Under the pieces are notes generated by a model. The model was not told where the DNA came from. It ran no database searches and saw only the letters and a list, made by a program, of their open reading frames with translations. A program made the translations under genes and the position numbers. Below, one piece after another: positions 9,120 to 54,201 of a stretch of DNA of 64,000 nt; position 1 is the first letter of the stretch; the number at the start of each line of letters is the position of its first letter. Origin of the DNA: an uncultured Pseudomonadota bacterium. GTDB taxonomy: Bacteria; Pseudomonadota; Alphaproteobacteria; RF32; CAG-239. The DNA lies in assembly GCA_949286215.1 (NCBI GenBank), contig CASDYX010000003.1, forward strand, positions 46,537-110,536, given 5' to 3'.

Positions 9120-9136
9120 TTTCTCTCCCCTCTAAA

Positions 9137-10056: not shown

Positions 10057-10059
10057 AGG

Positions 10060-11417: not shown

Positions 11418-11504
11418 AACGAGCTTAATACGCCGTAAGTTTTTTACGACGTGTACAACGAGCTACACGAGTAAAAAATTTACAAGTAGAAAGCCGTTAT
11501 ACAA
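11418..11504. repeat. intergenic 85-bp repeat, copy 2 (possible sRNA or regulatory element downstream of era)
   Basis: See copy 1. It lies immediately beyond the era stop codon. Confidence 0.5.
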
Positions 11505-11511
11505 GCTTTTA

Positions 11512-13078: not shown

Positions 13079-13140
13079 GATAAACTCTTTTTTTAGTAAT
13101 GATATAAAACAAATACTTGTCCAACTCTTAATTTTGAGAG

Positions 13141-13893
13141 TTATTTAATTTTGTTAAACAAACGTTCCCAACGAATCATTTTCGGCCAAGTCCAAGGCTT
13201 ATACCAAGCCCCGTCATCGCTGTTAGAAAAGAACAAGAAACGTGCTTTACCAACCAAATTTTCAAAAGGAACAAAGCCGACATTAACGCGACTATCATCA
13301 GAGCGGTCACGATTATCCCCCATAACAAACAAACTACCTTCCGGAACGGTCAACTCTGGTAAATTATCTTCGTTTTCAAAATCGGAAACTTCCAAGATTT
13401 TGTGTTTTTTACCCCCCGGCAAGGTTTCCATATATTGGTGATAGCGTTCGGCGTTGCCTTGGCTGTCGCGAATAACAAAATCCTGCATTTCCTCGCGTTC
13501 AACCAATTCACCGTTCACAAACAAGCGCCCGTTTTCCATTTTGATTTTATCACCGGGCAAACCAATAACACGTTTGATATAATCGGTTTTGTTATCTTGC
13601 GGAAACTTAAAAACCACCACATCGCCGCGTTTGGGTTCATCTGCCCAAACTCTTCCCTCAAACAAAGGAATGCTAAACGGCAAAGAATGTTTGGAATAAC
13701 CATAAGTATATTTAGAGACAAACAAATAGTCCCCGACATAAAGGGTCGGATACATAGACCCTGAAGGAATTTTAAAAGGCTCAAACAAGAACGTTCTAAT
13801 CAGAATGGCGATAACGATTGCATAAAACAACGTTTTCACCGTATCCATTAAGCTTTCATCTTCTTCCATTTTAATCTCTTTTATAAAAAACAA
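13141..13893 (-). CDS. lepB: signal peptidase I
   Basis: N-terminal TM, catalytic Ser region GSMYPTL, and box E GDNRDRSDDSR. Confidence 0.85.
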   Translation of the reverse strand: MFFIKEIKMEEDESLMDTVKTLFYAIVIAILIRTFLFEPFKIPSGSMYPTLYVGDYLFVSKYTYGYSKHSLPFSIPLFEGRVWADEPKRGDVVVFKFPQDNKTDYIKRVIGLPGDKIKMENGRLFVNGELVEREEMQDFVIRDSQGNAERYHQYMETLPGGKKHKILEVSDFENEDNLPELTVPEGSLFVMGDNRDRSDDSRVNVGFVPFENLVGKARFLFFSNSDDGAWYKPWTWPKMIRWERLFNKIK

Positions 13894-14000
13894 TAACTTC
13901 TAGTCATTATTTTTGAAAAAAGCATGAACGCGTGCATTTTTCAAAAACAATCAATTTTTTTGCATACTAACCGCATATTTTACGGATAGCAACAACAAAA

Positions 14001-14405
14001 TCAAATTAATTCAATAATTACAAAAGCTTGCGCCCAAGGATAATCATCACTCATAGACACTTGCAGATTATACTCTTTTCCTTTGCTTAATTTTTGCAAA
14101 TGTTTCAACGCACCGCCATAAATTTTGAGCTGAGGCTTGCCTGATTTTTGGTGCACGATTGCAATATCTTTCATGAACACTCCTTCACGAAAGCCCGTTC
14201 CCAAAGCTTTTGCAAAAGCCTCTTTAGCGGCAAAGCGTTTTGCTAAAGTGCAAGCATATTCCTTTGGCGAAATAGCCTGACGTTTTTTAATTTCGGCAAA
14301 CTCAACCGGAGCAAAAGAGCGTTTCAAAAATCTCTCACCGAAGATGCTGATTGTTTCTTCAATACGGCTGATATTAGCCAAATCACTACCGACACCCAAA
14401 ATCAT
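14001..14405 (-). CDS. acpS: holo-[acyl-carrier-protein] synthase
   Basis: 134 aa starting MILGVGSDLANISRIE, typical of AcpS. Gene order acpS-lepB-rnc-era is conserved. Confidence 0.85.
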   Translation of the reverse strand: MILGVGSDLANISRIEETISIFGERFLKRSFAPVEFAEIKKRQAISPKEYACTLAKRFAAKEAFAKALGTGFREGVFMKDIAIVHQKSGKPQLKIYGGALKHLQKLSKGKEYNLQVSMSDDYPWAQAFVIIELI

Positions 14406-14518
14406 AAAAATAACCCTTTTCTAACCTTTTGATACGACACAAACATTTGATATATAGTATAAAAAATTCTCCCTCGCAACCCAGATTTAAGAAAAAACTC
14501 AAATTGTGGATTGTCTGC

Positions 14519-16702
14519 TTATTGATTGGCTCTTGCCACATAAGACACCACTTTACTGGCTTTAAGAGCGGCAATAATATCGGTTAAATGTTTGAGGTCT
14601 TTAACATCAATATCAATCAATAATTCAAAATAGCTGATTGTTCGATAAACGATATTCAAGTTAGAGATATTACCGTTATTTCTGGCCACCAGATTTGACA
14701 ATTCAGCCAGCGAACCGGGTTCATTGGCAAGCATAACTTTAAGACGTCCGGTATGCATTTCATTTTCGGCTTCTTCCCCCCAAGCAATATCGAGCCAACG
14801 TTCGGGCTCATCGGCATATTTCTCCAAGGCTTTACAATCAATTGTATGAACAGCAACCCCTTTACCTGTGGTAACAATACCGACAATTCTGTCGCCAGGC
14901 AGAGGGTGACAACACCCTGCAAAATGCACGGCCATTCCCGGAATAAGCCCTTTAATTTTAAGAGGCTCACCTTTTTTCTCTTTTTTGATAACTTTCTTAA
15001 AGCTCGGAACTTTAATGGATTTAACCACTTTTTCCAGTTTAGACTGCTTATAAGCCGGATAAACCGCCTTCAAGACATCCCAACCAGTCACTAACCCCTC
15101 ACCGACTTTAGCATAAACATCTTCTATCGATTCGGCCTCAAAATTCTGCAAAACGTTTACCAAGGCTTTTTCTGAAAATTCCAAATTTTCACCCTTAAAT
15201 AAGCGTTCCAAAATCTCTTGTCCCAGAGTAATGAATTGGTCGCGTTTATTTGCACGCACATAACGTCTGATGGCTGCTTTTGCTTTTCCGGTGACAACAA
15301 AGCGCTCCCATTCGGTTGATGGATGTTGAGCTTTAGAGGTCAAGATTTCAACTTGGTCACCATTTTGCAATACGGTTCGCAGAGGTCTGATTTCGCCGTT
15401 AATTTTGGCACCGACACAAGTATCGCCCACCGAAGAGTGAACGGCATAAGCAAAATCCACCGGTGTTGAATTAACCGGCAAACCGATTAAATCACCTTTT
15501 GGTGTAAAGCAAAATACCTGATCGTTATACATTTCGAGTTTGGTATTTTCTAAAAATTCTTCAGGATTGGAGGCTTGCTCCAAAATTTCCAACAACTCTC
15601 TAATCCAGCGATAATGCTTACCTTCGGCTTTTTGTCCTTGCTTATAGGCCCAGTGAGCGGCCACACCTTTTTCACCGATTTCATGCATTTCGTGCGTACG
15701 AATTTGAATTTCAATACGGGTATTTTCAGGACCAATCACACCGGTATGTATGGATTGATAGCCGTTAGGTTTCGGGGTGGAAATATAGTCCTTAAAGCGT
15801 CTTGGCACCATATGGTATTTGCTATGAACCACGCCCAAAGCCTGATAACAGGTTGCCACATCATCAACAATGATACGAAACGCCATAATATCGGAGAGCT
15901 GCTCAAATGAGGCATTTTTTTGCTGCATTTTGCGCCAAATGGAATAAGGCGTCTTTTCTCTTCCTGATACAGAAGCCTTAATGCCGTTTTCTTCCATATC
16001 TTTTTCAAGCTGTTGAATAATTTTCGGAACAATATTGCTTCCTTGCTCGCGCAAAAAGTTCAAACGCGCAACAATTGAATCATGAGCATCTTTATGCAGT
16101 TCGGCAAAAGCAATTTCCTCCAACTCGCTTTTGACTTCTTGCATACCGATACGTTCGGCTAACGGCGCATAAATATCCAACGTTTCACGAGCAATTCTGG
16201 CACGTTTTTCAGGCTTTTTCACAAAATGCAATGTCCGCATATTATGCAGTCTATCCGCCAATTTAATCAGCAAGACGCGGATATCTTCAGACATTGCCAG
16301 CAAGAGTTTACGGAAATTTTCGGCTTGTTTGTTATTAGCCGATTTCTGTTCAATCATCGCCAACTTGGTCAAACCATCCACCAACTGCGCTACTTGGTCA
16401 CCGAAAAGGGCGCGAATTTCTTCTACTGTAGTATCGGTATCTTCCACCGTGTCATGCAGAAGACCTGCAATAATCGAGGCTGAATCCAACTTAAACTTGG
16501 TCAAAATACCGGCAACTTCTACCGGATGCGAATAATACGGGTCACCGGATTCACGAAGTTGAGCTCCGTGTTTTTTCATGGCGAACACATAAGCGCGGTT
16601 GAGTGCATCTTCATCGGCATCAGGGTCATAAGATTTTACTAAATCGACTAATTCATACTGTCTTAACATTTTTACCCATAAACAAAAAGTTATCCGTAGC
16701 AA
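14519..16702 (-). CDS. spoT: bifunctional (p)ppGpp synthetase/hydrolase (RelA/SpoT homolog)
   Basis: HD hydrolase motif HDTVEDT, synthetase domain, TGS and ACT regions. About 716 aa if the start is the Met at MLRQYELVD (near 16669). Confidence 0.9.
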   Translation of the reverse strand: MLRITFCLWVKMLRQYELVDLVKSYDPDADEDALNRAYVFAMKKHGAQLRESGDPYYSHPVEVAGILTKFKLDSASIIAGLLHDTVEDTDTTVEEIRALFGDQVAQLVDGLTKLAMIEQKSANNKQAENFRKLLLAMSEDIRVLLIKLADRLHNMRTLHFVKKPEKRARIARETLDIYAPLAERIGMQEVKSELEEIAFAELHKDAHDSIVARLNFLREQGSNIVPKIIQQLEKDMEENGIKASVSGREKTPYSIWRKMQQKNASFEQLSDIMAFRIIVDDVATCYQALGVVHSKYHMVPRRFKDYISTPKPNGYQSIHTGVIGPENTRIEIQIRTHEMHEIGEKGVAAHWAYKQGQKAEGKHYRWIRELLEILEQASNPEEFLENTKLEMYNDQVFCFTPKGDLIGLPVNSTPVDFAYAVHSSVGDTCVGAKINGEIRPLRTVLQNGDQVEILTSKAQHPSTEWERFVVTGKAKAAIRRYVRANKRDQFITLGQEILERLFKGENLEFSEKALVNVLQNFEAESIEDVYAKVGEGLVTGWDVLKAVYPAYKQSKLEKVVKSIKVPSFKKVIKKEKKGEPLKIKGLIPGMAVHFAGCCHPLPGDRIVGIVTTGKGVAVHTIDCKALEKYADEPERWLDIAWGEEAENEMHTGRLKVMLANEPGSLAELSNLVARNNGNISNLNIVYRTISYFELLIDIDVKDLKHLTDIIAALKASKVVSYVARANQ

Positions 16703-16801
16703 TTGATTTAATACTACACCATTTATGTTAGAACCTACAACACAAAAATTAAAATTTGCTTTAAAACCCCCTTATTTTCAGCCTTCTTTGTACGAAAAGC
16801 A

Positions 16802-16830
16802 TAAAAAAAACGGAGCCATTTCGGCTCCGT
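16802..16830 (-). terminator. rho-independent terminator downstream of rpoZ
   Basis: Stem cggagcc/ggctccg, followed by a U-run on the minus strand (plus-strand A-run at 16802-16809). Confidence 0.45.
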
Positions 16831-16852
16831 CTAAGAATTTTTAGAGTAATGA

Positions 16853-17341
16853 CTATTCTTCATCATCAAAATTATCACCTAAGTCATCGCCCAGGTCAAA
16901 ATTATCGTCCATTCCGTCTTCATCACCTAAAGACAAGTCATCACCTTCTGCATCAGCGGCATCCAAATCCAAAACATCGTCATCTTCACCGTGAACTTGC
17001 ATACCATCAGACATTTCATTATCAAGCAAAACACCGGAGAATTGGTCATCCAAATCAGCCAATTCTTTTTCAGCGGCCATAATTTCCATTTCTTCTTCTT
17101 CAGGCTCTTCAACTTCAACATATTTTTGAAGTCCCAAAACCAAAGATTTTTGCAATTCTTCAATACTAACGGTTTCTTCGGCAATTTCACGCAAAGCGAC
17201 AACCGAGTTTTTATCATTATCGCGAGCAACCGTAAGCGGAGCTCCGGCAGCAATATCTTTAGCGCGCTGAGCCGCAACCATTAACAATTCATAACGGTTA
17301 GGAATTTTATCTACGCAATCTTCAACAGTTACACGAGCCAT
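16853..17341 (-). CDS. rpoZ: DNA-directed RNA polymerase omega subunit with a long acidic C-terminal tail
   Basis: N-terminal [30 protein letters not shown] matches the RpoZ core. It is followed by an Asp/Glu-rich tail of about 70 aa. Confidence 0.85.
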
Positions 17342-34664: not shown

Positions 34665-37600
34665 ATGAGTTCTAAAAAAAAGCGCTATAATCCATTAAAA
34701 GATGCTTCTGACTACCTCGTAGATGAAGCACAAACTCCTGCGGAAAAAATAATGGATGCAATGCGTCCGTCTCTCCCCATTATCTCCGATGACGAATTAA
34801 AAGACCCCTCACCGATTATCCAACACCTTGAACAAACTCAAGATAAGGAAGACGCTCAAAGTGCCGAAAAAGAACTCTTAGACTTACTTGATAAATACTA
34901 TAACGGTGATCGAGATGTCTCAAAAGAACTCCGTTATAAGAACAAAGCCATTTACAAACAGCTTCTCATCCAAAAATTCAAACAATGGGGCTTAATTTAT
35001 ATCGAAAAGAAGCACTACGCCTTAAGCCGTCCGGAAAAACACTTAATCCGAATTGACTTCTACGGTACGGTCAACAAACCGCGCCCAGACCAAAAAAGTG
35101 AAGCTTACACCCAGAACTCCACCGTTTTTGCTGAAGAACTCAGCCGCAAAGAAAAAAAGAAAGCCAAAAATTCTTCAAACAACAATATTGTCCAAGCAAG
35201 CTCTTCTGAGCCACAAGAAAAAAAGAAATACTCTCCGCAAGATTATGACTTAAGCACCTCCCCTACTTGGAGATTAATGCGCACTTTTCCACGCTTTCAC
35301 ACCATTGAAAACAAAGTCCGTATCCAAATGGCCAAACAAGGACTCAACCCTCAAATCTTGCCTTACTTAAATGTTTATGACTATTCTGATATTTTATACA
35401 ACTATTACCAAAAACCCGAGACCCAAGAAGGCGAGAGTGTCAGAATTTTCTTAGGGGCACGTCAGGCCTTTATCAAAGACCTATTTAGAAAGAATGCTGA
35501 TTGGTTCAGAGATTACTTCAAACGTCACAATTATGATGAACGCTATGCAGAAGCGCTCATTAAATCGGCACAAAGAAAAGGTGTGACAGCAAATATTGAA
35601 TTAAAAGATAATATGCAGGATTATATTTTTGAATATTTGCATAACCACAAACAAAACTTCATCTCGTTTACTCAACAAGAAATACATAACGGCAATCATG
35701 TTACTGGCATTTTAGAAAGGCTGAACAATCCCAATGCCCCTTTAACTGACGAAATGAAAAATTTCATACAAGAAAATGAAACTAAATTTCAAAACCACCT
35801 CAAAAGAAAATACATTACCAGTCACCTACTCAATGCCACTTTTGAAGTATTAAATGACAAAGAAATTCCTTTTTACTTAAAAGAAAACATCAGAAGCTTT
35901 GTTTTATCCTCTCCTGACGAATTTAAAAAATTCATCATACAGAATAACTTCTCGGAAAGAGAATACGAGGTTATGAAAGAAAAAATAAAAAACAAACCTC
36001 CCAGAGAAAAACTGGAAAGCTTAATTAACGCATACGCCAAACAAAACTTAGAAAAATTTCAAAATTTCTTAATCGCTGAAAATCGCGATGAAAATTATAT
36101 CAAATACGCCACCAACTGCTTAAGACCACCACTCGTTCCCGAATATATCAGAGAAAGCCTATATAATTTTATTTTAAGCAAAGAGGATTCACCTTTAAGT
36201 CAACAACTTCAAAAAGAAGGCATTACGCGCGAAAACTTTGCCTCGGTAAAAGAATATATTTTACAGCACCGCAAAGAATACAGTGATTTTTTCAAACAAA
36301 ACAATATTTTAACCAACCAAGAGCTCAACGAGCAATATACGGATATTACAAACTTCATCATAAAAACGCAAAATATGCCTTCTTACATCAAAGATTTTGC
36401 GCAACAATTTATTCGTCGCAACCAAACCGTTTTCCGCTATTGGTATGCAAATTTCAGAGTCCGTCAACACCAAAAAGATGCCGAACAAAAACATAAAAAC
36501 ATTATGGAAAAGGGGCTTTCGGAAACTGATTTCCAAGAAGTATCAACATTTATCAAAGAACGTCTGGATATTTTCAGTGAATTTTGCCAAGGGAAAGGAC
36601 TTAACTTGCCCTCTCAAGAGATTAAGGTAATATTTAATCAGGGAAATTTTCTTAACCCGCAAGTACTCAATAAATCCTCTAACAAAGAAACCCTTAGCTC
36701 AATGCGCAATTTATTGGAACAATTCATTCGTCGCAATGGCTATATTTATCGTAATTCACTCGTTCAGCAACATATTCAAGCCAAAGAGAATGAGGCCGAT
36801 ATCATCTTAAAAAAAATCACCCAACAAGGCATCACCTCAACCACAATGGCCATAGCTCACAAATTTATATTAAACAACAAACCATTGTTTAATAATGATT
36901 TCTACAACAGTAGCGATGCCCAAGATTATAGCCAGGATATTATCTCCAATTTAATGGAGAACACAGCCAATAAAGATATTTTGCAAATTTCCAAAAATTT
37001 CATTTTGCATAACCAAGATGAATTTACAACTTTTATTAAAGAACCGCAAAATATTGAAAATTATATCTCCAATATAACCCAAAAATTAGAAACTTCACAA
37101 AACAAAGGCGATGTTTCTTATTGGGGATTACAATATATCACCCAAAATCAAGATGATTTTATCCAATATCTAGAAGCAGAAAAAATCGGGTCTGAAAATA
37201 TTGAAAACATCAAAAAACAACTTTCAATACAATCATTATCACAAAACATTAAAATGCTATTTGAAAACGACAATTTAGCACTGCAATTTAATGATGGAAA
37301 CACAATAAAAACAACAATTTCCGTACACCACATTAAAGCAGTACAAGATAGTTTTGAGGAAGACATTCCAATTTCGCAAACGCTGCAAGACCAAGAAGAT
37401 TTTAAGCAAGATGCTTTATATGTTCCGAACTTAGCTGCCGCCAACTATTTTAAGAATTTATGCGCTGTCATTGATGACCCCTACCATATTCGCTTTTTCC
37501 ACGGCATGGATAAAACCGAAAAATTTGATAACTTGGAACGTTACATTGGCCGCATTTACCCCCTTAATCAGCATATTGTCTTTTTTGGCGGTCTTGACCT

Positions 37601-37763
37601 GCAAGACCAACTCTCTTATGATTATACTCAAGACGAGCGCACCAAACGTTACCAAAGACATACAGAAAAAATGATGCAATTAAACGAAGAGCAAAGACAA
37701 CTTGATACCTTAAGTCCGGAAATGAGATTTTACATTGTCACCGGCAGCCGCCAAGGACGATAA
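34665..37763 (+). CDS. large helical-repeat protein (1032 aa) with a distinct C-terminal domain of about 120 aa; candidate polymorphic toxin or secreted effector
   Basis: At least 11 tandem repeats of about 40-45 aa with the core F(I/L)xxNxxxFxxF (examples FILHNQDEFTTFIKE, FIQENETKFQNHL, FIIQNNFSEREYE). A non-repeat C-terminal domain is present (HIRFFHGMDKTEKFDNLERYIGRIYPL...). Immediately followed by a SUKH-family immunity-like gene. Confidence 0.5.
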   Translation: MSSKKKRYNPLKDASDYLVDEAQTPAEKIMDAMRPSLPIISDDELKDPSPIIQHLEQTQDKEDAQSAEKELLDLLDKYYNGDRDVSKELRYKNKAIYKQLLIQKFKQWGLIYIEKKHYALSRPEKHLIRIDFYGTVNKPRPDQKSEAYTQNSTVFAEELSRKEKKKAKNSSNNNIVQASSSEPQEKKKYSPQDYDLSTSPTWRLMRTFPRFHTIENKVRIQMAKQGLNPQILPYLNVYDYSDILYNYYQKPETQEGESVRIFLGARQAFIKDLFRKNADWFRDYFKRHNYDERYAEALIKSAQRKGVTANIELKDNMQDYIFEYLHNHKQNFISFTQQEIHNGNHVTGILERLNNPNAPLTDEMKNFIQENETKFQNHLKRKYITSHLLNATFEVLNDKEIPFYLKENIRSFVLSSPDEFKKFIIQNNFSEREYEVMKEKIKNKPPREKLESLINAYAKQNLEKFQNFLIAENRDENYIKYATNCLRPPLVPEYIRESLYNFILSKEDSPLSQQLQKEGITRENFASVKEYILQHRKEYSDFFKQNNILTNQELNEQYTDITNFIIKTQNMPSYIKDFAQQFIRRNQTVFRYWYANFRVRQHQKDAEQKHKNIMEKGLSETDFQEVSTFIKERLDIFSEFCQGKGLNLPSQEIKVIFNQGNFLNPQVLNKSSNKETLSSMRNLLEQFIRRNGYIYRNSLVQQHIQAKENEADIILKKITQQGITSTTMAIAHKFILNNKPLFNNDFYNSSDAQDYSQDIISNLMENTANKDILQISKNFILHNQDEFTTFIKEPQNIENYISNITQKLETSQNKGDVSYWGLQYITQNQDDFIQYLEAEKIGSENIENIKKQLSIQSLSQNIKMLFENDNLALQFNDGNTIKTTISVHHIKAVQDSFEEDIPISQTLQDQEDFKQDALYVPNLAAANYFKNLCAVIDDPYHIRFFHGMDKTEKFDNLERYIGRIYPLNQHIVFFGGLDLQDQLSYDYTQDERTKRYQRHTEKMMQLNEEQRQLDTLSPEMRFYIVTGSRQGR

Positions 37764-37764
37764 A

Positions 37765-38181
37765 ATGCTTACACTTTTAAAACGCATTAAAAACAAAATT
37801 CATCCCCCCAAAGAAGTGCTACTTACTCAAGCTTTAATCTCTCAAGCCTCGCAAATTTTAGCACAACACCACATTGCCTCTATTCCAAGTGATTACCTTC
37901 ATTTTCTGCATTTTTGCAATGGTCTTCAATATCAAGATGCTTGGTTATTAGGAATTTTTGAGGAACATACTCAAATCAATGATATTTGTCGTTTCAACCT
38001 CCAAATCTCTCACCCTTTGTCAAAAGACATTATCATTTTAGGTTTTGATGAATTTGACTTACTTGGATATAATCAAAAATGGAACAGCTATCAAATCATT
38101 GACAAAGACGATTTTGAGGTGCTAGAAGAGTATCAGGACTTAGAAACGGCATTAAATTATATATTGAAGATAGAATCATGA
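37765..38181 (+). CDS. SUKH (SMI1/KNR4) family immunity-like protein
   Basis: Motifs IPSDYLHFLHFCNGL and IIILGFDEFDLLGYNQKWNSYQIIDKDDFE match the SUKH-1 pattern (LPxDYxxFL..NG ... ipia.d..gn.l.ld....yy.D.e). The start at 37765 is 1 nt after the stop of the large gene, with a Shine-Dalgarno aagga 8 nt upstream. The ORF track starts at 37735, inside the previous gene. Confidence 0.55.
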   Translation: MLTLLKRIKNKIHPPKEVLLTQALISQASQILAQHHIASIPSDYLHFLHFCNGLQYQDAWLLGIFEEHTQINDICRFNLQISHPLSKDIIILGFDEFDLLGYNQKWNSYQIIDKDDFEVLEEYQDLETALNYILKIES

Positions 38182-46046: not shown

Positions 46047-47084
46047 ATGAGTGAGAATCAACAACCCAAAAAGGTATTCAAAAAAATAAAACACAAAAGA
46101 CCAATGTCCCAAGGTTCAAGAATTCCTCCCACGATGTCTGTTCCCGCATCAACCGAAGCAGACATTAAAGCCCTATTGGCAGAAGACACGCCGCCTCAAG
46201 AGCAAAAGGTCTCTTCCACTCCCCAAAACAATGATGAAGAAGACGAATTTGAGCGTTTACTTAATGAATTCATCAGTGCCGAATTAGATGATTCATTAGA
46301 AAATGCCCAAGAAAATTTGGAAAATGTAAAAAACGGCGACATCCAAGAACAAAAACAAACTCTTCCTTTCAGCAACACCGATGAAGAAAACGCCAACCTT
46401 CTGGAAGATCCTGAAAAATCTCTTTATCGAGCTTATCAAAATTACTTTTTTGCGATTCGAGCAATGACTGAGAGTAAAAATATTACTCCTACATCTCCCT
46501 CTCTCACCGCCGAAAATTTTTACCCTCACTACAAACCACGCCTTGGCATTCGCATTTCCAAAGAAATTATGCAAGGTTGGGATATAATGCTCAAAGTATT
46601 TCCTCAAGATTTAGCATCATTAAATCCCGGAGGAACTGATGATGAGCTTTTAGACTTTGCGGAACAAGCCAATGATGAAAATTTACAATTAGCCGTAATT
46701 TCTTATGTTGAGATTTTAATTGAAATGGAAGGCTGCGATATTCAATATGAAACACGCAAACTTAAAGCCGAGCGTCGTAAAATTGAAAAAGAGATTTACG
46801 AAGCCCATCAAGCGCGCGTAGAACGCAGCCAAAAATATATAGAAGCCATCAAAAACAAAGAATTTCCAATAGATGCCGAAAGATTGGTCAAAAACTTTTT
46901 CAAAACCTCAAATAAAGATGCCGAAGGAGCTTATAAAATGCTAACCACCAATCCGGCAACTTTTTCGCCAATTGAAATCAGCAAAATCAGGCCTAGACTC
47001 TTTGGGCTCATTAAAGTTACACCACAAGATGGCATTAGAGTAAATCGCGAAATTGGAGAATTTATAAAAAAACTAAAAGCATAA
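46047..47084 (+). CDS. acidic hypothetical protein (345 aa)
   Basis: ORF in a tight co-directional cluster. No recognised domain. Confidence 0.4.
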   Translation: MSENQQPKKVFKKIKHKRPMSQGSRIPPTMSVPASTEADIKALLAEDTPPQEQKVSSTPQNNDEEDEFERLLNEFISAELDDSLENAQENLENVKNGDIQEQKQTLPFSNTDEENANLLEDPEKSLYRAYQNYFFAIRAMTESKNITPTSPSLTAENFYPHYKPRLGIRISKEIMQGWDIMLKVFPQDLASLNPGGTDDELLDFAEQANDENLQLAVISYVEILIEMEGCDIQYETRKLKAERRKIEKEIYEAHQARVERSQKYIEAIKNKEFPIDAERLVKNFFKTSNKDAEGAYKMLTTNPATFSPIEISKIRPRLFGLIKVTPQDGIRVNREIGEFIKKLKA

Positions 47085-47154
47085 ATGTTTTTACAAAAAT
47101 ATAGACAAAAAACATTTTTAATGCTACACTAAAGTTAATGAACAAGATTTTAAG

Positions 47155-48618
47155 GTGAAGAATATGGCAGATACCCCTAAAACAGTAAGCGTAAACGAAG
47201 CATCCGCTCCTCAAGCCCCACAACCGGTACAACAACCGGCACCTCAACCTACGCCTCAAAACAATTCTGAGCCGCAAAGAACCATTGCCTTATCACAAAA
47301 CCCCAAGAAAGAAGCTCAAACCTTCCAAGGAATGACTGTTGCTCAAAAATTAAACTATCTTAATATTAAAGAAAAGCGCGGAATTTTAACTCCTGATGAA
47401 CGTAAGCAACAGGAAGAATGCCGCGAGCAATTAGCTAAAGAACAAGAAGGTGATGAAGGTGAAATCACTCCTGAAGACGGAACCAAGGTCGGCGATAAAG
47501 ATGATGAACCCAAAGACCTCTTCAAAGAACAAGACATCATTCAATATATGTATAATGAGTGGCTGTTAGGCGGCGCCAACTGGCTCTACAAAAAAACCTA
47601 CAAACAAGTTGACAAGATGTATGAGTCATTCAAAAATCGTTGTGCTCAAGCTAAAATGGATGCCCAAAAACGCAAAAATGCAACTTATGACACCATTACC
47701 ACCCGTGATAACATTGATGACAAAGCAGTCAAACTTTATGATGGGCAAAAGGCCTCTATCGACAAAGGCAAGGAAGGACTTAAAGCTGTTTTAGAAGACA
47801 TTAAAAACGGCAATATTGATGCCTCCAAAGCCACAGGCTTAACCAAACGCCTTATGCAAGAATTGCCTGAAGGCAAACGTCAACAATTTTGCACCGAAGC
47901 ACAAGCCATGATTGAAAACTTGGCTGAGAATATGAAAACCATTCATTTCGTTGCAGGTCAACTTGCTCGTGCCCAAATGGCTGAAAGCATATGTATCAAC
48001 CAAAACGCTTTCAAAAATTCCGTGCCGGCCAATGTTTTTGAGGCCATGGAAAAACGCAACGCCTTAGCTATTGCCGCCCAAATGGATGAATGGCAAAAAC
48101 AAGGCAAGAATCCGGCTAAACTCATTCAAAAATTAAAAGATGACGTTGAAAAAGCCAACAAATTTGCCGACAAGCAATACAAGAAAGAAAAATTTGATGA
48201 AGCTGGCAAAAAAGGTAAAGAAAACAAGACGCTCCGTAAAATTAACGAAACTTTAGGTATTCCCTCTGAAGAAGTCACTAAACCACAACACTACGCACCA
48301 CAAACCATGTTGCAGCATTTGATTGTATCAAACAACTTGGAAATGGGAATAACAGAAAAACTAAACAAACTAAATGGCCGTCAAATGGTTCAGGCGGCAC
48401 GGAATGACAACTATCAAGACAGGAGAGCCAATCTGCATAACCGTGTAGCTAACGCTGCACGATATAGTGAAATGATACGTTCTCGTGTCAACCCGAATGG
48501 TCTTCTTGTAATGGATACGCAAGGACAACGTCGCGCGCAACAACTCCAAGGCGTACGCCCGCAATTTAATATGGATGCCTACCGCATGGCTCAACAGCAA
48601 CAAGGAGCCACTAAGTAA
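47155..48618 (+). CDS. hypothetical protein (487 aa), Pro/Gln-rich N-terminus, predicted coiled coil
   Basis: ORF in a tight co-directional cluster. Low-complexity PQ-rich N-terminus. Confidence 0.4.
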   Translation: MKNMADTPKTVSVNEASAPQAPQPVQQPAPQPTPQNNSEPQRTIALSQNPKKEAQTFQGMTVAQKLNYLNIKEKRGILTPDERKQQEECREQLAKEQEGDEGEITPEDGTKVGDKDDEPKDLFKEQDIIQYMYNEWLLGGANWLYKKTYKQVDKMYESFKNRCAQAKMDAQKRKNATYDTITTRDNIDDKAVKLYDGQKASIDKGKEGLKAVLEDIKNGNIDASKATGLTKRLMQELPEGKRQQFCTEAQAMIENLAENMKTIHFVAGQLARAQMAESICINQNAFKNSVPANVFEAMEKRNALAIAAQMDEWQKQGKNPAKLIQKLKDDVEKANKFADKQYKKEKFDEAGKKGKENKTLRKINETLGIPSEEVTKPQHYAPQTMLQHLIVSNNLEMGITEKLNKLNGRQMVQAARNDNYQDRRANLHNRVANAARYSEMIRSRVNPNGLLVMDTQGQRRAQQLQGVRPQFNMDAYRMAQQQQGATK

Positions 48619-48620: not shown

Positions 48621-49118
48621 ATGCTCAAAAAGCTTCTGAAATTTTGCAAATGGCTTATGGTCGGAATAATCTGGACGTATGTATTTTTATACGCCAGCTT
48701 ATTTTTCACCAGTACAATTTGGAATTTCAACTACCTATCACTCATTGATTGGGAAATTATTTCAGCTTATTGGAATCAAGGCGGCAGCATTAAAGAAGCC
48801 ACTGATTACGGTCTATTTCTGACCTTAATTTTACTCATTCCGTTCTGGATTTTAGGCTGGAGATTTTTCTATCATCGAGATTTCATAGCCCTCATACTAG
48901 CTCCCATAAACTGGTATAATCAAAAACAAATAAAAAAATATGGTCAAAACGCCTCACGTATTGTTATAAAGAATATGGGAAGCACAGGCAAAAAAATTAA
49001 TCCCGAAGAAGTAATTGAAGCAAAATTAAAAGATTTCAAATCGAATATGGAGCACCAAGAAAAAAACTCAGATATCTTAAGAGAAAAGCTCAAAGAGAAA
49101 TTTGATAAAAAAAATTAA
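48621..49118 (+). CDS. membrane protein paralogous to the N-terminal transmembrane domain of the VirD4-like coupling protein
   Basis: TM1, aromatic periplasmic loop and TM2 (WNFNYLSLIDWEIISAYWNQGG...LFLTLILLIPFWILGW) align by eye with the same region of 49178 and of the VirD4-like protein (YWNWLKQISNY...LWLPILPFISLPFG). No ATPase domain. Confidence 0.45.
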   Translation: MLKKLLKFCKWLMVGIIWTYVFLYASLFFTSTIWNFNYLSLIDWEIISAYWNQGGSIKEATDYGLFLTLILLIPFWILGWRFFYHRDFIALILAPINWYNQKQIKKYGQNASRIVIKNMGSTGKKINPEEVIEAKLKDFKSNMEHQEKNSDILREKLKEKFDKKN

Positions 49119-49177: not shown

Positions 49178-50488
49178 TTGAAACCCTTTTTAATAACAGT
49201 CCGCATTATATTTGTAGGCATCTTCTGGAGCATATTTTTTCTGGAAGGGATAAGGGTTATTATGCTCACCAACTGGCGTTTTGATATTTTCCGTTCCCGC
49301 CATTGGGAGCATTTATACAATCTATGGTACCAAGGTTGGACCATACAAGCTCCCAAAGAATGGGCATTTATCTTAATCATTTTAACATTTATTCCTTTAT
49401 GGTTAACCGGCTGGGCTGCTTTAAGCTTGATAGAGTGGGATAAACTATTGGTTAAATTGGTCGTTTACCCAATAAAACTCTTTCGAAAACTATTCTACAA
49501 ACAAGTAACTGTCATTGCGACTAAAAAGCATGGTCAACCAGTAAAAAAGAAAAGATCTTACAAAGAAATAAGACCTCGTAGTATCCGAGCTCCGATTGAT
49601 GACCGCATAGAAGATGCACTGCCTCGTCCGACAACATTGAGCAACCAAGTCACCAAAACACATAGCGCTCCCAAAATAACACCGCCTACTTTAGCCGCTT
49701 TGAGTTCTCCTCCTCCGAGTGAGCCTAAAACTTTTGATCATTCATTATTCCAATTTGACGATGGCGAAAGTGACGATTTCGACTTTAATTTTGATGCTTT
49801 TGATACTCCGCCTGCACCTCAAAAAGAAGAAAGTCCTAAGTCCGAGGAAAAAAGAGCTCCCCGAGAAAAAGAAAAAAACAAAGAAAATCGGGACTTTAGA
49901 GATACGAGAGAAAAGAAAGACTTTAGCAAAAGCCCTAAAGAGGGACGTAAACCTCAAGCTAATAATCGCGGAGAAAATCAAGTTCAGCGTGGCGGCTCTC
50001 TTATGGATGTTCTCAAACAAAAAGGCTATGAAATCATTACCGGAGCAACCCTTGCCAATAATTTAATAGACTTTATCGGTGTTGCCGATAAGAAAATTTG
50101 TGTTTGCCTGCTTGATAAAGAGCCCGGAGATTGGTTAGCCGATGAAGAAAGATTTAACGACGAGGAACCTCTCTGGTTTTCGGAAAGCAGCCATAGAATT
50201 TCTCCGGTCAGAAAAATTACGTTATCCTGCCAAGCTTTAGAAGAAAAATTAAAAGAAGCAGATTTAAATTTCAGCGTCATACCTTATGTCATTATTCAAC
50301 TCGGAAACATCATCAATGCCGAAGATATGTTTGAAATCTGGGATGATATGAAAGTTAATGTAACTCGTATTGACAGAGGTACTCCAAAAGAAATTAAGCT
50401 TTTTGCCAAAACTTTGGAAGAAGCTGAAAATCACATAGATAACGATAAATTTGAAAAGCTCAAAAAATTAATTCGTAATATAAAGTAA
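49178..50488 (+). CDS. membrane protein with a T4CP-N-terminal-like TM domain, a Pro/Glu/Lys-rich linker and a C-terminal NERD-like (nuclease-related) domain
   Basis: The N-terminus is paralogous to 48621 and to the VirD4 TM domain (HWEHLYNLWYQGW...FILIILTFIPLWLTGW). The C-terminal block GATLANNLIDFIGVADKKICVCLLDKEPG resembles the NERD core (IDHvvi..Givvievk). A low-complexity charged linker of about 150 aa separates them. Confidence 0.45.
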   Translation: MKPFLITVRIIFVGIFWSIFFLEGIRVIMLTNWRFDIFRSRHWEHLYNLWYQGWTIQAPKEWAFILIILTFIPLWLTGWAALSLIEWDKLLVKLVVYPIKLFRKLFYKQVTVIATKKHGQPVKKKRSYKEIRPRSIRAPIDDRIEDALPRPTTLSNQVTKTHSAPKITPPTLAALSSPPPSEPKTFDHSLFQFDDGESDDFDFNFDAFDTPPAPQKEESPKSEEKRAPREKEKNKENRDFRDTREKKDFSKSPKEGRKPQANNRGENQVQRGGSLMDVLKQKGYEIITGATLANNLIDFIGVADKKICVCLLDKEPGDWLADEERFNDEEPLWFSESSHRISPVRKITLSCQALEEKLKEADLNFSVIPYVIIQLGNIINAEDMFEIWDDMKVNVTRIDRGTPKEIKLFAKTLEEAENHIDNDKFEKLKKLIRNIK

Positions 50489-50511: not shown

Positions 50512-52746
50512 ATGGAAAAACAAGGCGAAGAATGGGAAGAGTACAATAACGCGGTCCGTTGGGTATTGATAACCTTCATCATAACATTTCTGGTTACTGC
50601 AGCTTTGGCTATTATCTCTATGCCGTTGGGCTATCTAATTGGTAGCGGCGTATCCAAAGATACCTTAGGTGAAGTCGGAAAATTTTTACAAACCATATTC
50701 AACTCACCTGATTACCTGTTTTCCAGATATTGGAATTGGCTCAAGCAAATATCCAATTACCATGGTCCATTTTCTGTTGGGCTATGGCTTCCGATTCTCC
50801 CTTTTATTTCTTTACCTTTTGGTATTGTTATCGGCACCGTAAGCAACCCTTACCGTTTTCAATCCAATATTCACGGTTCCGCCCGCATTGCCGAGTTAAA
50901 AGACATTAAAAAGATGGGCTTACTTGATGGTTTCTGCATGGTTGTCGGCAAATACAAAGGGCATCTGTTAATGTTAAAAGAAACCCTTTCAACCTTGTGC
51001 TGCGCACCTCCGGGTACCGGTAAAACTGCCGGAGTAGTTATTCCGACAATTTTCCACTCTCACGGCATGAGCATTGTGGTAAACGACCCAAAACCTGAGT
51101 TGTGCTTCACTACCACGGGTGCCAGAGCCAAAGATGGACCGGTATTTGTCATTAACTGGGGTGCCGAAGATAATCCGGCAGAAGGTATTTATTACCCGAG
51201 CTGGAATCCTTTGTCGCCGAATGCTTTGCCAGCCCCTGGTCCTGACCGTGATATGTATGTGGACTCAATGTGTAATATTTTGGTTGAAGACCCGAAAGGC
51301 GGCGCAGACCCGCACTGGTCAAAAACCGGTCGTGCCGCACTAACCGGCTTCATACACTTTATTGCCTCCAAATGCGAGCGAGCTCGCGCCAACGACTACT
51401 TTATCGGCCGTGTTTATGAAGGTAAACTCGACGATGAAGATAAAAGAGTTCTGGAAGGCTACTATTTGGAAATGCGTGATCCTATGGCCGCTCAAGCCAT
51501 TCAAAACCTCCATAGCGGGACTTTAACGATTGATAACTATCTCCCGATAGGTACTTGGTCATTATTGCCCGAAAAATGGATTGGCCACGAATCTTGCCTA
51601 GCAATGATTTTGGAGTGGATTACCGAGTCGCAAATTAAACAATCCCAAGAAATCAAGCGCCGTCTTGATGAAGGTGACCAAATGGCCGCCATGGCAGACC
51701 CAATGCGTGATATGTTGGAAGAAGCCATAGAAGAAGCCAGAAAATACGGCTACTCACCACGTTGTATTGTAGAACTTAGCCAATTAAGTTCTATGCCTGA
51801 TAAAGAGCGTGGTTCCGTATTGTCCACCGGTTTCTCAGGTATTGGTATTTTCAAAAACTCAGCCGTTGTATCGCGTACCAGCTTTTCTGACTTACACTTT
51901 AAGGATTTGCGCGGTATGAAGGACCCGATTACCGGCGAGTGGAAACCAATTTCGGTTTATCTGTCAGTTAACCAAGTTGATGCGAGAGCCTTGGGTGTTA
52001 TTTCAGGAACATTTATTGAGTTAATGTCCTCTTACCTAATTGCTAACCCGCCAAAATTTCAAAACAAAACCGATGGTCAAATGGGACCTTTCCCAACCTT
52101 GTTTGTATTGGACGAGTTTCCGCAAATGCCTAAATTAAAAGCCATCATTGATGGTCCGGCGGTCGGACGTGGTCAAAAAGTATCATACTTGCTGATTGGC
52201 CAAGACTTAGGACAAATTTCGGGTAAATACGGAAAAGATGACTTGGAAACGGTTATTTCTACCACGGCTTGCAAAGTTATTTTATCTCAAAACAACGAGC
52301 AAACCGCCCAACGTTTCTCCAAAATGATTGGTAACAAAACCGTCCAAACCACCTCATTCTCAAAGAACGAAGGTATCAGCTTCCAAAAAGGCTCAAACCC
52401 GTTCAGTAAAAACGTTAGTTACCAATTACAAGGAACATCTGTAATTAGTACAACGCAATTGCTGAGCTTGCCGATGCTCAAACAAGTAGTTCTGATGCAA
52501 GGTTTCATTGATCGTCCGATTATGGCAGATGCCCCTCGTTTTTATCTGGATAAGCAAATGTTGGCCTTATCAAAACTTCCGCCATCACCTTATGTTCCGG
52601 ATTGGATTGTTGCCCAACGAGAAGATATCAATGAAGATATGCTCTCCAAACTGGGTATTGAATATGATCCGAACGAAGATTATGATGACGAAGACTTTGA
52701 TGATGACGACTATAATGAAGAAGACATCAATACAAACCCAAATTAA
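50512..52746 (+). CDS. virD4: type IV secretion/conjugation coupling protein, VirD4/TraG family (744 aa), with an acidic C-terminal tail
   Basis: Two N-terminal TM helices. The HGSARIA motif aligns with the VirD4 HGTARWA block. Walker A APPGTGKTAGVVIPT (compare VirD4 APTRSGKGVGVVIPT). LFVLDEFPQMPKL aligns with the VirD4 LFLLDEF..LGKL block. The D/E-rich C-terminus is DYDDEDFDDDDYNEED. Confidence 0.85.
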   Translation: MEKQGEEWEEYNNAVRWVLITFIITFLVTAALAIISMPLGYLIGSGVSKDTLGEVGKFLQTIFNSPDYLFSRYWNWLKQISNYHGPFSVGLWLPILPFISLPFGIVIGTVSNPYRFQSNIHGSARIAELKDIKKMGLLDGFCMVVGKYKGHLLMLKETLSTLCCAPPGTGKTAGVVIPTIFHSHGMSIVVNDPKPELCFTTTGARAKDGPVFVINWGAEDNPAEGIYYPSWNPLSPNALPAPGPDRDMYVDSMCNILVEDPKGGADPHWSKTGRAALTGFIHFIASKCERARANDYFIGRVYEGKLDDEDKRVLEGYYLEMRDPMAAQAIQNLHSGTLTIDNYLPIGTWSLLPEKWIGHESCLAMILEWITESQIKQSQEIKRRLDEGDQMAAMADPMRDMLEEAIEEARKYGYSPRCIVELSQLSSMPDKERGSVLSTGFSGIGIFKNSAVVSRTSFSDLHFKDLRGMKDPITGEWKPISVYLSVNQVDARALGVISGTFIELMSSYLIANPPKFQNKTDGQMGPFPTLFVLDEFPQMPKLKAIIDGPAVGRGQKVSYLLIGQDLGQISGKYGKDDLETVISTTACKVILSQNNEQTAQRFSKMIGNKTVQTTSFSKNEGISFQKGSNPFSKNVSYQLQGTSVISTTQLLSLPMLKQVVLMQGFIDRPIMADAPRFYLDKQMLALSKLPPSPYVPDWIVAQREDINEDMLSKLGIEYDPNEDYDDEDFDDDDYNEEDINTNPN

Positions 52747-52772: not shown

Positions 52773-53372
52773 ATGTGGGAGTGGTCAAATCAAAAACATC
52801 AAAATAACTTAATACTTCCTTATAATGATGATGACTCCTCCCTGCTCTCAGCCTATGATGATTTGCTCACCAAAGGCATTCCGCCTTCAGCCCAACCCTT
52901 TCAAAATGCGCTTAACAAACAGCATCTGCAAGACATTGCGGAGATGGAGCACAAACTTGAAAGAAAATTAAAAGAACTACACCTAACCACCTTTCATTTG
53001 GAAAAACACGCCTATCTTCCCCTCACTTGGGAAAAACAAACCTCCCTTTATCAAGAAACTTGGAAATTAAGAAACATCTTTCTGAAAAGGCTCGCCTATA
53101 CAGATGAATACGCTCTCAAAACAATAGGTCTGAACTTTCAAGACATAAATCTGCTAAAACAAGGAATTACCCCCGAAAACTTTAATGTTCATATTAAAAT
53201 TCCGTTTGACTTTGGAGGTAAGGCTGAATTAAATAATTTATGCTTAATGCGTGCCCACCCCACACACGAAAATTTACACAAAATCATAGACATTCAGTTA
53301 AATTCCAACTTTTTGCGCCAACAAAAAATGTTATTACTGCCAATTTCCGAGGGAAAAATCTGTCATGACTGA
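52773..53372 (+). CDS. HNH/EndoVII-fold nuclease domain protein (toxin-like)
   Basis: C-terminal NVHIKIPFDFGGKAELNNLCLMRAHPTHENLH fits the HNH core (H-h-h-P-x3-GG-x5-N-L-x2-L-C-x3-H-x2-H). 27 nt downstream of virD4 and overlaps the following SUKH gene. Confidence 0.5.
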   Translation: MWEWSNQKHQNNLILPYNDDDSSLLSAYDDLLTKGIPPSAQPFQNALNKQHLQDIAEMEHKLERKLKELHLTTFHLEKHAYLPLTWEKQTSLYQETWKLRNIFLKRLAYTDEYALKTIGLNFQDINLLKQGITPENFNVHIKIPFDFGGKAELNNLCLMRAHPTHENLHKIIDIQLNSNFLRQQKMLLLPISEGKICHD

Positions 53373-53781
53373 AAATTTACCGATAATTTATTTTCCCCCA
53401 ACCCTAATAAAAGAAATTGAAGAGAGCAACAATTGGCTTCTCATGCAAAAATTTTGCGCCCTGCCGGAAGAATATCAAAAATTTCTCCTCAACACCAACG
53501 GTCTAACTTGCAATGGACTAGATTTATATGGAAGTTGCGCTCATTATAGAGAAACAAAGAATTACAAATTTCCTTCCATTCAAGACATCAACAAAAATTT
53601 CATCAACTATCGTTTTTTCAAAGATAAAGTCATCATCGGCAATTGGAACGAGAGTCTGATTTATTACGATAAACGAGGCAACTACTATGCTCTTGCCGAC
53701 AGAATCAATCTGCGTTCAAGATACGAGGCCGATAGTTTTGAAAAAATCTTAAACTACCTTATGGAAGCCATAAAATCTTAA
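53365..53781 (+). CDS. SUKH (SMI1/KNR4) family immunity-like protein
   Basis: ALPEEYQKFLLNTNGL and VIIGNWNESLIYYDKRGNYYAL match the SUKH-1 signature. Its start overlaps the HNH gene stop (ATGACTGA). Confidence 0.55.
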   Translation: MTENLPIIYFPPTLIKEIEESNNWLLMQKFCALPEEYQKFLLNTNGLTCNGLDLYGSCAHYRETKNYKFPSIQDINKNFINYRFFKDKVIIGNWNESLIYYDKRGNYYALADRINLRSRYEADSFEKILNYLMEAIKS

Positions 53782-53786: not shown

Positions 53787-53894
53787 CCAGACGAACCCTT
53801 GGGTTCGAGCCCGATGCAATTACAAAAACATTAAAATTTAAAAACAAAAAATCTCCCTCACGGGAGATTTTTAAATGGGGCGAACGATCGGGCT
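53787..53894. repeat. 108-bp direct repeat, copy A (tRNA-like T-arm fragment, terminator hairpin, last 19 nt of the tRNA-His 3' end); att-like
   Basis: Near-identical to 54037..54143 (one 1-nt indel). It ends exactly where copy B continues into the intact tRNA-His. Confidence 0.7.
53846..53871. terminator. bidirectional hairpin terminator (within repeat copy A); terminates the plus-strand T4CP cluster
   Basis: Perfect stem aaaatctccc/gggagatttt with loop tcac. T-run downstream on plus, and a T-rich run on minus. Confidence 0.5.
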
Positions 53895-54036: not shown

Positions 54037-54143
54037 CCAGACGAACCCTTGGGTTCGAGCCCGATGCAATTACAAAACATTAAAATTTAAAAACAAAAAA
54101 TCTCCCTCACGGGAGATTTTTAAATGGGGCGAACGATCGGGCT
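54037..54143. repeat. 107-bp direct repeat, copy B (overlaps the 3' end of tRNA-His)
   Basis: See copy A. Confidence 0.7.
54096..54121 (-). terminator. hairpin terminator immediately downstream of tRNA-His
   Basis: Same gggagatttt/aaaatctccc stem as copy A, 3 nt beyond the tRNA CCA end on the minus strand. Confidence 0.5.
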
Positions 54144-54201
54144 CGAACCGACGACAACCGGTACCACAAACCGGGGCTCTACCAACTGAGCTACGTTCGC
54201 C
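54125..54201 (-). tRNA. tRNA-His (anticodon GUG) with encoded G-1 and CCA
   Basis: The reverse complement folds as G(-1)-GCGAACG...; anticodon loop TTGTGGT; T-loop TTCGAGC; acceptor 3' strand CGTTCGC, then discriminator C, then CCA. The extra 5' G opposite the discriminator C is the tRNA-His hallmark. Confidence 0.85.

Follow-up and report, generated by a model that had tools for sequence, protein, structure and literature searches.

What is well documented so far about antibacterial effectors linked to type IV secretion systems (T4SS) comes mainly from Xanthomonadales, whose effectors use an XVIPCD signal at the C-terminus; TfdA of S. maltophilia is an experimentally supported, T4SS-delivered DNase of the GHH/HNH superfamily with an immunity protein (PMC11253643). 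The Hcp-ET1-type HNH-DNase is an antibacterial effector delivered through type VI secretion (T6SS) (PMC6730261). E. coli K-12 YhhZ ("putative endonuclease YhhZ") consists of a T6SS_HCP domain and a C-terminal HNH domain, and yrhA lies downstream and overlaps the end of yhhZ. Here we describe a pair of open reading frames, ORF1 and ORF2, that directly follow the gene for a VirD4/TraG-type type IV coupling protein (T4CP) in an uncultured Pseudomonadota bacterium; the window analyzed is the 64,000-nt stretch of contig CASDYX010000003.1 from position 46,537 to 110,536. While the HNH superfamily, the YhhZ C-terminal (YhhZ-CT) type of toxin domain and the YrhA/SUKH family are already known, the obligate and vertically inherited coupling of such a pair to a T4CP, its N-terminal motif, its altered catalytic site and its spread through gut Alphaproteobacteria are new, and a literature search found no paper describing the T4CP-linked ORF1/ORF2 module.

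The preliminary description of this DNA, made from its letters alone, had placed two overlapping genes directly after the virD4 coupling gene, and we confirmed both the coordinates and this position in the sequence. ORF1 occupies positions 52773-53372 of the forward strand (199 aa) and ORF2 positions 53365-53781 of the same strand (138 aa); HIKIPFDFGGKAELNNLCLMRAHPTHENLH corresponds to ORF1 residues 140-169, and ORF2 holds LPEEYQKFLLNTNG and IIGNWNESLIYYDKRGNYY. The two genes share 8 nt (53365..53372, forward strand), with the ATG of ORF2 at 53365 and the ORF1 stop codon at 53370-53372. The same -8 overlap recurs in more than 20 orthologous loci, and the arrangement suggests that the genes are translationally coupled. 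Only 26 nt separate ORF1 from the T4CP gene (50512-52746, forward strand), which encodes a 744-aa protein carrying PPGTGKT (Walker A), LDEFP (Walker B) and, at its C-terminus, an acidic tail. This protein matched the Pfam families T4SS-DNA_transf (PF02534; 189.5 bits, cut-off 20.1), TraG-D_C (PF12696; 82.5 bits) and TrwB_AAD_bind, and it reached no NCBIfam equivalog threshold. Since the ratio of nonsynonymous to synonymous substitution (dN/dS) against close orthologues lies at 0.02-0.12 for the pair (0.024-0.082 for ORF1 and 0.059-0.124 for ORF2, compared to 0.015-0.022 for the T4CP), ORF1 and ORF2 are real genes under purifying selection.

When ORF1 was searched as a single sequence, it matched no Pfam or NCBIfam family at E values up to 1, and searches of PADLOC, PHROGs and PDB sequences with either the single sequence or the family profile gave nothing usable. 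The ORF1 family, which comprises ~26 clusters at 35-84% identity, yielded a profile that retrieved 463 relatives from 1.84 billion representative proteins. Profile positions ~60-200 matched the extreme C-termini of LXG, PAAR-like, RHS, PT-HINT, PT-TG and Mu-portal proteins, with LXG, RHS, PAAR-like and HINT proteins matching at ~1e-11, and the matching C-terminal stretch of these relatives carries weak Pfam HNH (PF01844) matches that are sub-threshold or borderline. An hmmsearch of a small database with the ORF1 profile matched YhhZ at 8e-13, and hhalign aligned YhhZ residues 257-352 with ORF1 residues 71-168 with a probability of 96.1%, an E value of 3.3e-9 and 31% identity across 95 columns. 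The C-terminal "IPxFEGKIYHD" of ORF1 is the counterpart of the toxins' "WPIPxGxIYP". Based on the family profile and the alignment to YhhZ, we therefore annotate ORF1 (52773..53372, forward strand) as a free-standing, HNH-fold, toxin-derived protein (PEN/H-Ile variant) whose toxin-type domain, residues 71-199 (52983..53369, forward strand), is homologous to the C-terminal domains of LXG, RHS, PAAR-like, PT-HINT, PT-TG, Mu-portal and Hcp toxins. The ORF1 model has predicted strands at residues 137-141 and 156-160 and a helix at 163-177; the structural models were of moderate or low confidence, and a Foldseek search of the ORF1 model against the PDB gave no significant match.

ORF2 (53365..53781, forward strand) had been recognized as a SUKH protein in the preliminary description, and this assignment was upheld. 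It scored 57.7 bits against the NCBIfam YrhA family NF038335 (cut-off 55), fell 0.2 bits short of the Pfam SMI1_KNR4 cut-off (25.2 vs 25.4) and matched SUKH_5 and SUKH_6, likewise slightly under threshold, at ~5e-4, while 15 of 15 orthologues and distant relatives matched the YrhA family (best E 4.8e-20). No signal peptide was found in ORF2, and neither Pfam nor NCBIfam gave a match to a DNA-binding domain. In PADLOC its only match was to KwaB (16.9 bits, E 6e-4), an ORF2 profile matched nothing among PDB sequences, and an AlphaFold model built from nine sequences had a predicted local distance difference test (pLDDT) score of 51, too poor for a fold search. The profile searches supplied a SUKH/YrhA match for ORF2 but no curated HNH match for ORF1 itself, whose homology to HNH toxins comes through the family profile. 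Because ORF1 is related to YhhZ, ORF2 belongs to the YrhA family and yrhA is next to yhhZ, the two genes are homologous, as a pair, to the Hcp-ET1-type HNH-DNase effector and its immunity protein. Taken together, these sequence comparisons robustly indicate that ORF1 and ORF2 descend from a DNase-toxin/SUKH-immunity pair, in agreement with the toxin-then-immunity layout proposed earlier.

We assessed the linkage of the pair to the coupling protein in T4CP loci from one genome per species (65 loci), with T4CPs 74-99% identical in RF32-like species genomes and 59% and 48% identical in two outlying loci. Of these loci, 24 had ORF1 and ORF2 together immediately 3' of the T4CP and ~38 lacked both; neither gene was ever found alone. 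In a quick neighbor-joining tree of the T4CP, the outgroups and two or three clades had the pair and other clades lacked it as a whole, which indicates that it is ancestral and has been lost a few times. Pairwise identities of ORF1 and ORF2 correlated with those of the T4CP (Spearman 0.74 and 0.77, respectively) and with each other (0.84), with the caveat that the P values ignore the non-independence of pairs, and the rate at which the pair evolves is several times that of the T4CP. It is robustly supported that the two genes form one functional unit, and their strict co-occurrence and correlated divergence (rho 0.84) suggest that ORF2 binds and neutralizes ORF1.

A metagenome scan by ORF1 motif, whose pattern required "Hx[KR]" and was thus blind to HH-type genes, recovered 58 loci. 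T4CP adjacency on short contigs is informative only where upstream sequence exists; among the 49 such loci, the T4CP was directly upstream in 47, 3 kb away in one and absent from one. A YrhA-like gene was directly downstream in 50 of 51 informative loci. The only metagenome locus with ~3 kb between the T4CP and the ORF1 homologue is L089 (~6992-9950). In six more distant cases (P0057, P0054, P0062, P0052, P0079 and the L063 pair), the ORF1 homologue sits between a T4CP (59-68% identical) and a YrhA-like gene, even though the flanks differ, and a g436-like gene is upstream wherever the sequence reaches. The arrangement persists across different flanks down to a T4CP identity of 49% (locus L080). 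The link to a coupling protein proposed in the preliminary description is therefore borne out in the species-representative genomes (24 loci), the metagenomes (47/49) and the distant cases (6/6), and the attachment of the pair to a VirD4-type coupling module is, on robust grounds, both specific and ancient. The pattern of presence and divergence indicates that the pair is vertically inherited with the T4CP and is not "polymorphic" here.

The "HNH motif" first noted at the end of ORF1 held up as to ancestry but not as a canonical active site. The beta-beta-alpha-metal core spans residues 134-177 (53172..53303, forward strand) and comprises PEN135-136, H140 at a metal ligand position, I141 at the canonical general-base position, GG148-149, N155, H165 and H169; none of E135, N136, H140, N155, H165 and H169 varies in any of the 26 locus copies. 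ORF1 thus has the elements of such a core: the Omega-loop (P..GG), the structural Asn and the His/Asn ligands on the helix. In colicin E9, the equivalent residues are H103 (general base) and H102, H127 and H131 (metal). A general-base His at the C-terminal end of beta-1 is nearly invariant in His-Me finger nucleases, and metal is often bound by the residue preceding it and by helix residues spaced +4 (PMC5714182). While "HH[KI]xP" is found throughout the remaining relatives, YhhZ and the LXG, RHS and PAAR-like toxins among them, members of the T4CP-linked clade carry "PEN[FY]NxH-[I/L/M/V/Q/R]-[K/R]xP". Since the alignments to HHKLP-type relatives and to YhhZ are gap-free, Ile141 occupies the position of the second His. 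By alignment, then, ORF1 keeps three ligand positions (H140, H165 and H169) and the structural N155 and is without the canonical general base. HNH nuclease activity cannot be assumed, because this His is missing in every T4CP-linked copy; catalysis, if retained, must use another residue, for which the clade-specific invariant Glu135 is a candidate. By analogy, a PacI-like Tyr nucleophile is conceivable in the many long forms of the family that have an Omega-loop Tyr, but such a mechanism is unsupported in the window's subclade because the residue there is Phe147.

The T4CP-linked clade is also distinguished by its N-terminus. The first 60 residues of ORF1 (52773..52952, forward strand) form a leader that begins with MWEWS, continues with SLLSAYDDL and is predicted to be disordered, with pLDDT below 50 for residues 1-50. 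M1, W2, E3, W4 and S5 are invariant in the A1/A2 sequences, and M-W-[E/D]-W-[S/T] is invariant or nearly so across the T4CP-linked clade, including long forms in which a 100-250-residue Q/P-rich linker precedes the nuclease-type domain. Since codons 3 and 5 vary synonymously, the constraint on the leader acts on the protein. All full-length MW[ED]W proteins (44/44) are the T4CP-linked active-site variant, with the H-nonH state and the invariant Glu135. Residues 1-60 gave no domain match and contain no recognized trafficking domain (Hcp, LXG, RHS, PAAR or HINT), and the 59 N-terminal residues, used as a query for other cargo, returned only four short fragments and no shared leader on other toxin domains. 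ORF1 had been described as lacking a recognizable trafficking domain; the conserved MW[ED]W N-terminus and disordered leader revise this, as together they make a candidate T4CP-recognition or trafficking signal. Should it act as one, this short motif could be a new kind of T4CP recognition signal.

Two further observations concern the long forms. Those linked to a T4CP carry a "...SGGKxKHDRSVYAGF...GR" tail that is common to free-standing HH relatives and that ORF1 is without. The 301-aa profile relative P0067 has a Q/P-rich N-terminal part and pre-HNH helices like those of the T4CP-linked long forms, yet it has the canonical core "HHKLPIHGGG", and this apparently hybrid structure suggests recombination between two subfamilies.

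Upstream of the T4CP, the window holds a syntenic cluster in the order RluD (reverse strand), DUF6476, g345, g487, g165, g436 and T4CP. The constant upstream partner of the T4CP is g436 (49178..50488, forward strand), a membrane protein with a highly conserved cytoplasmic C-terminal domain and a weak NERD match (E 0.02), which accompanies the T4CP in distant loci L063, L074, L076 and L080 and in metagenome loci. Its C-terminal motif is almost invariant (DKEPGDWLADEERFNDEEPLWFSESSHRISPV). The small membrane protein g165 (48621..49118, forward strand) is paralogous to the N-terminal membrane region of g436 (BLASTP E 1e-11), and a g165-like gene of 122 aa is present in L080. The conserved cluster genes g345 and g487 (46047..48618, forward strand) have no Pfam, PDB, PADLOC or PHROG assignment and were not detected in distant loci L063 and L080. 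Where the region is present, g345, g165 and g436 occur in nearly every RF32-like locus, and g487 was detected in part of them only. None of g345, g487, g165 and g436 has a family or PDB assignment, and PDB profile searches with g345 and g436 gave no matches. The T4CP, whose only PADLOC match was to mad8 (E 0.011), has a higher amino-acid identity than the neighboring RluD and MipZ. A T4CP cluster more conserved than the housekeeping neighbors compared, and with constant partners, is an uncharacterized system worth study in its own right.

Genes for a secretion channel were found near the module at two loci. In L080 (JGI 3300010167, 5943-17017), the order is g436-like, g165-like, T4CP (49% identical), the ORF1 homologue P0085 and an overlapping YrhA-like gene, followed by genes for a 61-aa VirB7-like lipoprotein, VirB8 (PF04335, 5e-19) and VirB9/CagX (7e-16). 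In L127, where the T4CP is 64% identical, the distance from the module to a VirB8 gene upstream of it is 6 kb. Judging from these two loci, the module belongs in at least two lineages with genes for type IV secretion; a search of the window and all loci for VirB8/VirB9 homologues found them only in L080 and L127. In L080, VirB9/CagX is followed by a protein of at least 1022 aa with six 5-fold beta-flower repeats, and the genes flanking the cluster are flagellar hook genes, an arrangement also seen in some close relatives (L018, L020 and L023).

Other relatives of ORF1 occur in different settings. In L081 (6229-10986), the histidine-less P0101 follows 921-aa and 336-aa proteins without domain matches and no recognizable T4CP, and an RHH_4 gene is next. 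Free-standing relatives with the canonical "HH", ~200-240 aa long with C-termini ending in ...GR, are found as tandem paralogues in housekeeping contexts in L072 (89-1483), L073 and L079 (1996-3970), those of L079 being followed by a YrhA-like gene. No T4CP was present in the available sequence of these three loci, which are short contigs, and we set aside the possibility that mid-range free-standing HH-type "...GR" relatives are T4CP-linked, as on checking they were not.

Our preferred reading is that ORF1 and ORF2 are an effector/immunity pair dedicated to the T4CP, with a non-canonical active site and with the MWEWS leader replacing trafficking domains, and we put it forward tentatively, as having slightly less than an even chance of being correct. 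The effector reading is favored because the pair is dispensable for the T4CP, is faster-evolving, always keeps its immunity partner and metal site, and has an analogue in TfdA. A YhhZ-CT/YrhA-type pair would have been captured by a chromosomal VirD4-type module in an ancestor of these gut Alphaproteobacteria and inherited with the module since. ORF1 and ORF2 would be made together by translational coupling, and ORF2 would bind, neutralize or chaperone ORF1 in the cytoplasm of the producer. The disordered leader, in place of the Hcp, LXG, RHS or PAAR domains of relatives, would hand ORF1 to the T4CP and its membrane partner g436 for export via a T4SS channel encoded elsewhere in the genome; in a recipient without ORF2, the HNH-fold domain would then damage DNA. 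The analogy in logic with X-Tfe/X-Tfi pairs that was drawn in the preliminary description is reasonable in that VirB8 and VirB9 adjoin the module in L080 and VirB8 is near it in L127.

Several points weigh against the pair being a T4CP-dedicated effector and its immunity protein. The general-base His is replaced, by Ile, Leu, Met, Val, Gln or Arg, in every T4CP-linked copy, and three proteins of the same clade (P0085, P0101 and P0118) have lost the remaining histidines too. The loci of P0085, which is in a T4SS cluster, and P0101 (L081) have nonetheless retained an overlapping and intact YrhA-like partner, an argument that selection can act on the pair for a role other than DNA cleavage. Known T4SS signals are C-terminal or internal, so an N-terminal one would be unusual. 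Neither the 64-kb window nor the sequence within 10 kb of any close relative's T4CP holds a VirB gene. The loci seen also lack alternative toxin cassettes, orphan immunity genes and signs of horizontal exchange, unlike typical antagonism loci; with vertical inheritance in addition, the idea of a polymorphic toxin system had to be given up for this locus.

It is possible, if somewhat unlikely, that the pair has been exapted, a non-toxic HNH-fold protein and its SUKH partner now being a dedicated accessory of the VirD4-g436 coupling complex. ORF1 could then act as a substrate receptor or adaptor, an ATPase regulator or plug, or a DNA-processing factor with a different nucleophile, and could have kept metal and possibly DNA binding. 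Such a change of role would fit the loss of the general-base His in all T4CP-linked copies together with the appearance of an invariant clade-specific PEN motif, as well as the retention of histidine-less members with an overlapping partner, one of them between a T4CP and VirB7/8/9-like genes. Long vertical co-inheritance with the T4CP, strong purifying selection and the lack of cassette polymorphism point the same way, and inactive or re-wired His-Me proteins have precedents in the ENPP nuclease-like domains and in PacI, which has a Tyr nucleophile (PMC5714182). However, there are whole clades in which the pair has been lost while the T4CP, g436, g165 and g345 remain under equally strong constraint, so that it is not needed for T4CP core function. 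The three metal ligands and the Asn are moreover invariant in the window's subclade, strict retention of an immunity-type partner is expected if ORF1 is still dangerous, and with Phe147 in place of the Omega-loop Tyr a PacI-like mechanism is unsupported here. For the specific proposal that the toxin/immunity pair, its three-histidine metal site retained, was domesticated as a secretion-machine subunit of a VirD4-g436 complex not described before, chromosomal and core to a clade of gut Alphaproteobacteria, whether as a substrate/DNA receptor, a gate or a nickase with a different nucleophile, we consider the case unlikely.

That the pair is an effector and its immunity protein whose place after the T4CP is merely historical or regulatory (a shared operon), with release by lysis, vesicles or another secretion system or with intracellular action, seems to us quite improbable. 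Close relatives of the domain are served by a variety of delivery systems, some HH-type relatives that have YrhA-like partners are free-standing genes located away from any T4CP (L072 and L079), and there are no VirB genes near the window locus; nevertheless, the linkage persists at 49% T4CP identity and with many different flanks, and it is only in the T4CP-linked clade that the MW[ED]W leader and the changed active site are seen. An intracellular conflict module would instead make the two genes a toxin-antitoxin addiction pair that stabilizes the cluster, or else would assign them, as nuclease effector and inhibitor, to an anti-plasmid or anti-phage system around a T4CP-like ATPase; the preliminary description had raised an addiction module and a conflict system. 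The overlapping two-gene toxin/inhibitor layout, the weak PADLOC match of ORF2 to KwaB and the weak NERD match in g436 would suit such a module, but the cluster is a syntenic chromosomal core that is flanked by housekeeping genes and persists without the pair, and the T4CP, with a dN/dS of ~0.02 and vertical inheritance, is unlike defense islands. No PADLOC model matched ORF1, the T4CP (apart from the mad8 match) or the partners, and the one weak KwaB match for ORF2 stands beside a T4CP that is a syntenic, extremely conserved core gene; neither the defense reading nor the addiction reading found positive support. In a type II toxin-antitoxin module the antitoxin, usually encoded upstream, has a DNA-binding domain and the locus is mobile or unstable, whereas ORF2 is a SUKH protein without a DNA-binding domain that lies downstream of the toxin gene in a syntenic chromosomal core. 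Altogether, we regard a conflict module as very improbable.

The window is otherwise ordinary chromosome, with genes for PFOR, SpoT, peptidases, Sua5, a sigma factor, RluD, a PBP5-type carboxypeptidase with a SPOR domain, MipZ, phosphoglucomutase and flagellar export, and the closest public genomes are those of uncultured gut Alphaproteobacteria, such as "Candidatus Scatocola" and "uncultured Azospirillum sp. UMGS63". A promoter and terminator scan gave no signal above shuffled expectation. Directly after ORF2 there is a direct repeat of ~108 nt (53787-53894 and 54037-54143, spaced 250 nt) that contains the last 19 nt of tRNA-His (54125-54200, reverse strand), a hairpin (AAAAATCTCCCTCACGGGAGATTTTT) and a T-arm-like GGTTCGAGCCCGAT segment. 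Since the interval between ORF2 and the carboxypeptidase gene consists of variable DNA (0.5-6 kb) in related species, the repeat region may be an integration hotspot or the scar of one. It does not explain the pair, because the T4CP association persists despite different downstream genes; a tRNA-His-associated island carrying the pair was rejected, as the pair stays with the T4CP in genomes with wholly different downstream genes. In L001, a separate HNH_3-type gene (11058-11624, reverse strand) lies just 3' of the ORF2 homologue on the opposite strand, within the variable region before the carboxypeptidase gene.

Elsewhere in the window, a 1032-aa protein (34665-37763) has no domain match, internal helical repeats and the C-terminal sequence "VHHIKAV...NLCAVIDDPYHIRFFH", and a 148-aa YrhA-family/SUKH protein (37735-38181) overlaps its end. 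Judged by sequence, 34665-38181 looks like a second, large toxin/immunity-type pair. We considered the 1032-aa protein as a second HNH toxin of the ORF1 family and rejected it, since hhalign gave a probability of 0.5% and the resemblance is at the level of a motif only.

Among the described systems closest to it, the pair shares with E. coli YhhZ/YrhA a homologous toxin domain, the same NCBIfam family of immunity protein and the same gene order with overlapping stop and start codons. It differs in that ORF1 has a 60-residue MWEWS leader and no Hcp domain, in that H-Ile takes the place of the HH doublet, and in being linked to a T4CP rather than a T6SS in an alphaproteobacterial host. We place YhhZ/YrhA with Hcp-ET1 by type; K-12 YhhZ need not be the very protein that Ma et al. 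(2017) assayed. The locus is resembled by SUKH-containing polymorphic toxin systems (Zhang et al. 2011, 2012) in having a C-terminal toxin domain, common to LXG, RHS, PAAR and HINT proteins, followed by a SUKH gene; in contrast with the classical systems, the locus has no cassette arrays and no polymorphism, is vertically inherited and has lost the catalytic His. Like PacI and the ENPP nuclease-like domain, ORF1 has a beta-beta-alpha-metal fold without the general-base His (PMC5714182); the likeness is one of fold features, and the Omega-loop Tyr of PacI is Phe147 in ORF1. Tox-REHH (Rehh/RehhI, bioRxiv 10.64898/2026.09.22.753552) is likewise a deeply divergent, HNH-type DNase toxin found on many secretion systems. 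On its published description, an identity of ORF1 with Tox-REHH was considered and rejected, since the Rehh residues R46, H52, E53, H102 and H121 do not fit the H140/N155/H165/H169 spacing of ORF1; the characterized Rehh representative is neutralized by an Imm22-domain protein, not by a YrhA/SUKH protein (bioRxiv 10.64898/2026.09.22.753552). Across these relatives, an evolutionary series leads from a canonical HH toxin through loss of the general base to loss of all histidines, which makes the domestication of a toxin/immunity pair directly testable.

As regards type IV secretion, the pair is like the X-Tfe/X-Tfi pair of TfdA in combining an HNH-superfamily, nuclease-type effector and a cognate immunity gene that are tied to VirD4 (PMC11253643). 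TfdA is an 899-aa protein with an N-terminal nuclease and a C-terminal XVIPCD, whereas ORF1 has 199 aa, with a nuclease-type domain that runs to the last residue, no XVIPCD and an N-terminal candidate signal, and it belongs to a different HNH subfamily and has a partner from a different immunity family. The pair further differs from X-Tfe/X-Tfi pairs in that it is invariably next to virD4, while virB genes are not adjacent. The locus thus adds to these a second, unrelated and widespread effector-type family that is hard-wired to a VirD4-type coupling protein, in abundant uncultured gut Alphaproteobacteria.

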